Assembly: GCF_030013595.1 (NCBI RefSeq)
Contig: NZ_CP122768.1
DNA: 64,000 nt
Source: Escherichia coli
GTDB lineage: Bacteria > Pseudomonadota > Gammaproteobacteria > Enterobacterales > Enterobacteriaceae
Reading direction: 5' to 3' (one strand)
The notes below the pieces were generated by a model that was not told where the DNA came from, did no database searches, and saw only the letters and a program-made list of their open reading frames with translations. The position numbers and the translations under genes were made by a program. Positions 19,430 to 20,557 of the stretch are shown here, piece by piece (within the stretch, counting starts at the first letter, position 1; every line of letters starts with the position of its first letter).

Positions 19430-20557
19430 ATGAAAGTTAAAGTACTGTCCCTCCTGGTCCCAGCTCTGCTGGTAGCAGGCGCAGCAAACGCTGCTGAAGT
19501 TTACAACAAAGACGGCAACAAATTAGATCTGTACGGTAAAGTAGACGGCCTGCACTATTTCTCTGACGACAAGTCTGTAGATGGCGACCAGACCTACATG
19601 CGTCTTGGCTTCAAAGGTGAAACTCAGGTTACTGACCAGCTGACCGGTTACGGCCAGTGGGAATATCAGATCCAGGGCAACAGCGCTGAAAACGAAAACA
19701 ACTCCTGGACTCGTGTGGCATTCGCAGGTCTGAAATTCCAGGATGTAGGTTCTTTCGACTACGGTCGTAACTACGGCGTTGTTTACGACGTAACTTCCTG
19801 GACCGACGTACTGCCAGAATTCGGTGGCGACACTTACGGTTCTGACAACTTCATGCAGCAGCGTGGTAACGGCTTCGCGACCTACCGTAACACTGACTTC
19901 TTCGGTCTGGTTGACGGCCTGAACTTTGCTGTTCAGTACCAGGGTAAAAACGGTAGCGTAGATGGCGAAGGCATGACCAACAACGGTCGTGGTGCTCTGC
20001 GTCAGAACGGCGACGGCGTTGGCGGTTCTATCACTTATGATTACGAAGGCTTCGGTATCGGTGCTGCAGTTTCCAGCTCCAAACGTACTGATGATCAAAA
20101 TGGTAGCTACATCAGCAATGGTGTAGCTCGTAACTACATCGGTACTGGCGACCGTGCTGAAACCTACACTGGTGGTCTGAAATACGACGCTAACAACATC
20201 TACCTGGCTGCTCAGTACACCCAGACCTACAACGCAACTCGCGTAGGTTCCCTGGGTTGGGCGAACAAAGCACAGAACTTCGAAGCTGTTGCTCAGTACC
20301 AGTTCGACTTCGGTCTGCGTCCGTCCCTGGCTTACCTGCAGTCTAAAGGTAAAAACCTGGGTGTCATCAATGGTCGTAACTACGACGACGAAGATATCCT
20401 GAAATATGTTGATGTTGGTGCGACCTACTACTTCAACAAAAACATGTCCACCTACGTTGACTACAAAATCAACCTGCTGGACGACAACCAGTTCACTCGT
20501 GACGCTGGTATCAACACTGATAACATCGTAGCTCTGGGTCTGGTTTACCAGTTCTAA
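19430..20557 (+). CDS. ompC: outer membrane porin OmpC (non-K-12 allele)
   Basis: 375 aa porin with signal peptide and C-terminal ...LGLVYQF. Confidence 0.95.

Follow-up and report, generated by a model that had tools for sequence, protein, structure and literature searches.

Loop polymorphism of the porin OmpC has been described in detail for Escherichia coli. Beck et al. (2016) typed the OmpC loops of 2,707 E. coli proteins (PMC5056734), and earlier work has described ompC as evolving in a mosaic fashion (bioRxiv 10.1101/2021.09.21.461324; PMC5056734). The allele considered here is the ompC gene of a stretch of 64,000 nucleotides (nt), hereafter called the window, from an E. coli genome (RefSeq assembly GCF_030013595.1, contig NZ_CP122768.1). 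Among its closest known relatives is OmpC of E. coli K-12 MG1655 (b2215, P06996; PDB 2J1N), which has the same locus, signal peptide and extracellular loops L2, L3, L6 and L8, probably the same regulation, and the same strands save two conservative changes in beta10, but differs in L1, in an L4 that contains GFTS, in an L5 that is 8 amino acids (aa) shorter and in an L7 without GVIN. The window gene is very probably the chromosomal osmoporin ompC of a natural E. coli isolate, one of many known loop-allele combinations. The peptide strings of its L4, L5 and L7 are exactly the types c7, b5 and e of the published catalogue (Beck et al. 2016 S2 Table), in which b5 is exemplified by B088 and the type e L7 by EC869, and the combination c7/b5/e occurs in RefSeq genomes. 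The feature is real, ordinary and already known.

The allele had been singled out by an original prediction according to which the protein has 375 aa against 367 in K-12, with divergent surface loops on a conserved barrel. Both lengths were confirmed from the open reading frame (ORF) and from the fetched K-12 gene, the difference being the net outcome of changes of -4, +8 and +4 aa, and the two divergent peptide strings quoted at the time are found in the translation and differ from K-12. In a global protein alignment with K-12 OmpC as the reference, 348 of 379 columns are identical, with 15 substitutions and 16 gap columns. When these were mapped on loop and strand boundaries based on crystal structures (Beck et al. 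2016 S1 Fig), 13 of the 15 substitutions and all the indels were found in extracellular loops (Fisher one-sided P = 2e-5); the two proteins are not identical, and their differences are loop-centred, as had been claimed. The differences cluster in L1, L4, beta10 with L5, and L7 (Table 1); those of L1 and L4 and the two beta10 substitutions had been overlooked. Loops L2, which holds the trimer-latching residues, L3, which forms the pore constriction, L6 and L8, the signal peptide and all strands except beta10 are identical to K-12. The sole non-loop differences, G212A and I214V, lie in strand E208-218 of an AlphaFold2 (AF2) model, and the 10-residue beta10 string that carries them goes with many non-K-12 L5 types. 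The window L1 is also present in the CFT073, F11 and EC869 alleles, and the L7 motif GVING occupies residues 311-315.

Allele frequencies were counted across 5,426 complete E. coli genomes. Taken over its full length, the gene is a minority allele: 42 of about 5,430 records match it at no less than 99% identity, and a single complete genome, that of strain 2012C-4221, matches it exactly; this rarity, and a repeat of 27-nt offset within L5 that could resemble a recent duplication, would fit a novel OmpC variant whose additional residues came from a new insertion peculiar to its lineage or from an error of assembly. Such an origin is extremely improbable and was rejected, since the L5 DNA is present in 73 independent genomes among the 5,426 (1.3%), in 56 of them exactly, the L4, L5 and L7 strings had been catalogued in 2016, and an exact-sequence look-up placed the protein, which is RefSeq WP_064225515.1 (e.g. 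APT61816.1), on 275 public contigs. Moreover, an identical protein comes from a strain whose gene carries six synonymous changes, which indicates that the allele is old and has been independently sequenced, and the copies of the L5 repeat are only 79% identical, so that any duplication must be ancient. This L4 is found at an identity of at least 99% in 200 of the 5,426 genomes, and a full-length related short L4 in 1,844. The long L7 is present at full length in 3,031 genomes (about 56%); at this loop the short K-12 form is the minority and K-12 the outlier, and what was described as divergence from K-12 is in part a peculiarity of K-12, the long L7 being the majority form in E. coli. The short K-12 L7 reads NLGRGYDD, and related long L7 forms are present in Citrobacter OmpC. 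Given the frequency of the GVING form and these related long forms, the K-12 L7 looks like a derived deletion. For the loop types, the protein itself, mosaic evolution and the functional weight of the motifs, publications or database records already exist.

The composition of the allele can be traced to two catalogued relatives. Its L4 is nucleotide-identical to the FDAARGOS_536/KTE205-type allele and its L5 to the 2013C-3033/B088-type allele. The KTE205/A42H-type OmpC (WP_001539019.1; c7/b1/e), also of 375 aa, is nucleotide-identical to the window in L1, L4 and L7, but carries an unrelated long L5, GTYVVDNVTHN, and is 25 nt apart, whereas the B088-type OmpC (WP_000865573.1; c1/b5/e), again of 375 aa, is nucleotide-identical in L5 and L7 but has a K-12-like L1 and a c1 L4 and is 22 nt apart. 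At the nucleotide level the former allele matches the window over L1 and L4 and the latter over L5, and the 41 sites that are informative between them fall in blocks, forming 10 runs (permutation P = 2e-4). Judged from these matches, the window allele can be explained as a mosaic of the two. Compared with K-12, synonymous divergence reaches about 0.55 in L4 and 1.2 in L5 but 0.054 in the barrel, and this excess in L4 and L5 argues that the loop cassettes are long-standing polymorphisms rather than new mutations. As the mosaic pattern shows, homologous recombination has put the allele together from old, divergent loop cassettes that circulate in the species.

Strain 2012C-4221, in which ompC is identical to that of the window while the flanks are about 1% diverged, may share with it a recombination tract that covers ompC, apbE, ada and alkB, with which the pattern of identity is consistent. 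When window positions 13400-26500 were compared with this strain, 3 differences were found over ompC and the roughly 4 kb that follow it (19229-23500), and the upstream rcsD and the region beyond 24 kb were clearly more diverged.

The assignment to OmpC was examined at the levels of family score, locus, barrel fold, and signal peptide, C-terminus and L3, and agreed with OmpC at every one. A profile search of the window protein gave 759.6 bits with the NCBIfam model NF007841 (porin OmpC; cutoff 484), and the paralogue models remained below threshold (OmpF 472, cutoff 583; PhoE 449.8, cutoff 599); Pfam PF00267 (Porin_1) matches with 468.9 bits. The C-terminus, LVYQF, has the aromatic end of a beta-signal, and the PEFGG constriction motif of L3 is the same as in K-12. 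The gene order rcsD-micF-ompC-apbE is that of K-12 and other annotated genomes, the K-12 arrangement being on the opposite strand, and micF has the position of K-12 micF. It might be asked whether ompC proper has been replaced here by a paralogous or acquired porin, such as OmpN, NmpC, a phage porin of the Lc type or one imported from Citrobacter or Salmonella, since a length of 375-376 aa resembles that of Citrobacter OmpC (376 aa) and the median number of porin-like places that megablast hits in a genome is two. A replacement of this kind has next to nothing to recommend it, however, because the locus is fully syntenic with that of K-12 and its flanks, micF and the terminator among them, are almost the same, the barrel outside the loops is 2 aa from K-12 at the low synonymous divergence given above, and the family models name OmpC and not its paralogues. 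The Citrobacter proteins are 85-90% identical and combine a short L5 with a long L4, the opposite pattern; for the same reason Citrobacter OmpC was rejected as a source of the long L5.

The micF-ompC intergenic region holds the OmpR-binding sites and the promoter. Three of its nucleotides are changed relative to K-12 (19228 and 19248-19249). The micF gene itself is intact; two bases of its terminator hairpin differ from K-12 (19014 and 19021), where the window version is the Rfam consensus, and at these bases K-12 is the variant.

Table 1. Positions in the window of ompC, its differing segments and its neighbours
Feature	Position	Strand	Basis or remark
ompC coding sequence	19430..20557	+	Intact ORF, 375 codons and stop (ORF list)
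Signal peptide, 21 aa	19430..19492	+	No differences from K-12; mature PDB OmpC chains start at query residue 22
Loop L1 (SDDKSVD; K-12 SDNKDVD)	19562..19582	+	N47D, D49S (alignment)
Loop L4	19946..20002	+	NPS to SVD, GFTS deleted, V to M, D to G; 4 aa shorter, 5 substitutions
beta10 substitutions G212A, I214V (precursor numbering)	20063..20071	+	Alignment; conservative
Loop L5	20084..20152	+	A to D, TA to GS, YISNGVAR inserted, A to N, N to T; 8 aa longer
Direct repeat within L5, 27-nt offset	20103..20148	+	Repeat search; GTAGCTACATCAGCAATGG and GTAACTACATCGGTACTGG, 15/19 nt alike
Loop L7	20354..20392	+	GVIN inserted (20360-20371), G to N; 4 aa longer
micF small RNA gene, divergent from ompC	19003..19096	-	Rfam RF00033, 118.7 bits (gathering score 79); context only
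micF-ompC intergenic region with ompC 5' leader	19097..19429	+	Nucleotide alignment with K-12
Likely ompC intrinsic terminator, hairpin then T-run	20576..20595	+	Consensus scan; same sequence downstream of K-12 ompC
rcsD	16019-18691	-	Adjoining gene on one side of micF-ompC
apbE (ftp)	20669-21724	+	Gene following ompC

The product would be expected to be a standard 16-stranded trimeric general porin, with barrel, L3, micF and upstream region as in K-12; what differs is the outward-facing surface, with a changed L1, a shorter L4, a longer L5 and a longer L7 hairpin. The AF2 model, built from an alignment of 76 sequences of diverse porins (50%-identity representatives), has 16 strands, with a predicted local distance difference test score (pLDDT) of 91.5 and a predicted template modelling score (pTM) of 0.87. 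By Foldseek it superimposes on the crystal and cryo-electron microscopy structures 2xe1, 2j1n and 9wcb with target-normalised template modelling (TM) scores of 0.96-0.98 (0.96 for 2j1n) and root-mean-square deviations of 1.4-1.6 A. The extra residues of L5 are predicted to form a small beta-hairpin, with strand E226-229, turn N230-G231 and strand E232-235 (pLDDT about 78-82), and the L7 with GVING is modelled as a continuous long hairpin (E296-313 and E316-334) that extends the beta14-beta15 hairpin.

The closest structures include those of OmpC from clinical isolates (2xe1, 2xe2, 2xe3, 2xe5 and 2xg6), and many carriers of the allele are livestock enterotoxigenic E. coli (ETEC) and Shiga toxin-producing E. 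coli exposed to antibiotics, which would suit an adaptation of permeability comparable to clinical OmpC20/26/28/33 or to the L3 insertions of OmpK36. This is nevertheless very unlikely: L3 with its PEFGG motif and all barrel residues but G212A and I214V are the same as in K-12, and the indels are all at extracellular tips; an adaptation of the pore for antibiotic resistance was rejected on the identity of L3 and lumen. With lumen and L3 the same as in K-12, the protein should let solutes and antibiotics through as K-12 OmpC does, and the threading of colicins should not differ either. It had been predicted that OmpC loops act as phage and colicin receptors and that their divergence may alter susceptibility. 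The colicin part of this proposal is weak, because OmpC has been described as a lumen translocator for ColE9, less efficient than OmpF, and not as a loop-recognised receptor (PMC8561637), and colicin E translocation should be unchanged from K-12 OmpC. The phage part agrees with published experiments on the same motifs in related alleles, and the better-documented toxin system that reads the loops is not a colicin but contact-dependent inhibition (CDI) by CdiA-EC536.

Phage recognition of OmpC has been dissected most closely for the O157 protein. The GVIN motif of L7 was shown to be essential for adsorption of phage PP01 to O157 OmpC, and K-12 OmpC became a full PP01 receptor when GVIN was inserted and GFTS removed, the deletion of GFTS alone being insufficient; the binding site of the gp38 adhesin was placed in the cleft between L5 and L7 (PMC12892980). 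The OmpC of O157:H7 (EDL933/EC869; c2/a6/e), whose structure with the A8 gpJ tail fibre (PDB 9WCB) is by sequence the closest solved structure to the window protein, has identical L1 and L7 (GVING) and an L4 of the same short length with two substitutions. It is otherwise set apart only by its short L5 (DDQNSPLYIGNGD), of which Ser/Pro residues crosslink to gp38, where the window has the 8-aa-longer b5; in addition, the YIGTG of the window has T where the O157 L5 has N. In the modelled L7 hairpin of the window OmpC the GVIN(G) motif is present, and by analogy with O157 the allele would carry the L7 determinant that PP01-type gp38 requires, with an enlarged L5 that borders the L5/L7 cleft and may hinder binding. 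For T4, a Phe within the GFTS of the K-12 L4 has been reported to matter (PMC5221442), and L1, L4 and L5 have been described as essential (bioRxiv 10.1101/2021.09.21.461324). Since all three differ from K-12, T4 gp37 can probably not use the window OmpC, just as T4 reportedly does not use that of O157. Chimeras of lambda-type gpJ also tell natural OmpC variants apart, 1A2 delivering to EDL933 OmpC but not to MG1655 OmpC (PMC11338833).

With regard to CDI, the class II toxin CdiA-EC536 has OmpC-OmpF heterotrimers as its receptor and recognises them through L4 and L5, and the tested alleles nearest to that of the window, A42H (c7/b1/e) and A54H (L5 b6), conferred resistance to CDI-EC536 (PMC5056734). 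Permissive L4/L5 combinations include b1/a1, c1/a1 and c6/a6, and by comparison with these the c7/b5 of the window would not be expected to serve as a receptor. The OmpC of the uropathogenic E. coli A54H has a long L5 one residue from that of the window (V for A), shares its L7 type e and has a short L4 of the c type, but its L1 (NKSED), L2 (TSEDNKEN) and c6 L4 are different, and because of these differences its phenotype is not transferable with certainty. By analogy with the resistant alleles, the window OmpC may be poorly recognised by CdiA-EC536.

Selection by loop-binding agents (the gp37/gp38 adhesins of T-even phages, lambda-type Stf and gpJ fibres, class II CdiA and host antibody) is believed to maintain the diversity of the loop cassettes. 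Several observations weigh against a functional reading of the loops. PP01 tolerated many changes of L5, both point changes and single deletions, and a longer L5 might not block its adsorption (PMC12892980); the statement that T4 does not use O157 OmpC is given by its authors as unpublished data, and in wild strains O-antigen or capsule often masks OmpC, so that the allele may matter little natively (PMC5221442). Under different conditions class II CdiA can show promiscuity (Virtanen et al., PMC6850196), and CDI resistance may therefore be partial or conditional. The L5 hairpin belongs to a predicted model of moderate loop confidence (pLDDT about 80), and the phenotypes proposed for the window allele are all extrapolated from related alleles. 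The tolerance of PP01, the promiscuity of CdiA and O-antigen masking would favour neutral drift of the loops without effect on phage, CDI or immune recognition, which is nonetheless quite unlikely in view of the concentration of differences in the loops (P = 2e-5) on a near-invariant barrel, of deeply diverged cassettes that have been maintained and reshuffled, and of experiments in which the L7 GVIN and the L4/L5 type switch receptor function.

The repeat within L5, which reads SYISNG and NYIGTG at the protein level, is the best local self-match of the gene (codon-shuffle P about 0.027), and suggests that the long "b" family of L5 loops may have arisen by an old in-frame tandem duplication. 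A fuller proposal, which we hold to be rather unlikely, is that the long L5 is an ancient duplication of xxYIGxG whose hairpin, lying over the L5/L7 cleft, might shield it against gp38-type adhesins and class II CdiA in an allele whose GVING L7 would otherwise be permissive for PP01, and that c7/b5/e might be spreading by recombination in livestock, especially porcine, E. coli through that protection.

The allele matters mainly for correct annotation. The OmpC surface of this strain is unlike that of the laboratory reference, so that phage host range, the targeting of phage therapy or engineered particles (gp38, gp37, gpJ), CDI susceptibility and OmpC serology or vaccines should not be extrapolated from K-12, which is itself shown to be an atypical strain for loop L7. 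Since loop polymorphism, modular recombination and the phage and CDI effects of ompC are already documented, the locus opens no new question.

Pigs were the source of 21 of the 40 best whole-gene matches (at least 99.2% identical), which include porcine ETEC and O139:H1 edema-disease strains. Most carry the sister allele WP_001590387.1, which differs by L300V, Q354R and N365D. This apparent over-representation is likely a sampling bias, possibly from a single study series. In the pig isolates HCP5S3_I2 and LCP30S3_I5 the flanks are about 100% identical to the window and ompC is 2 nt apart, one of the two changes being D53Y. These UK pig faecal isolates have an IS3-family transposase between atoS and rcsC, which the window lacks (about 12400). 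The convergent rcsC-rcsB intergenic region (window about 15150-15350) has 85 nt in the window and HCP5S3_I2 and 199 nt in 2012C-4221, where the approximately 114 extra bases are probably a repetitive extragenic element.

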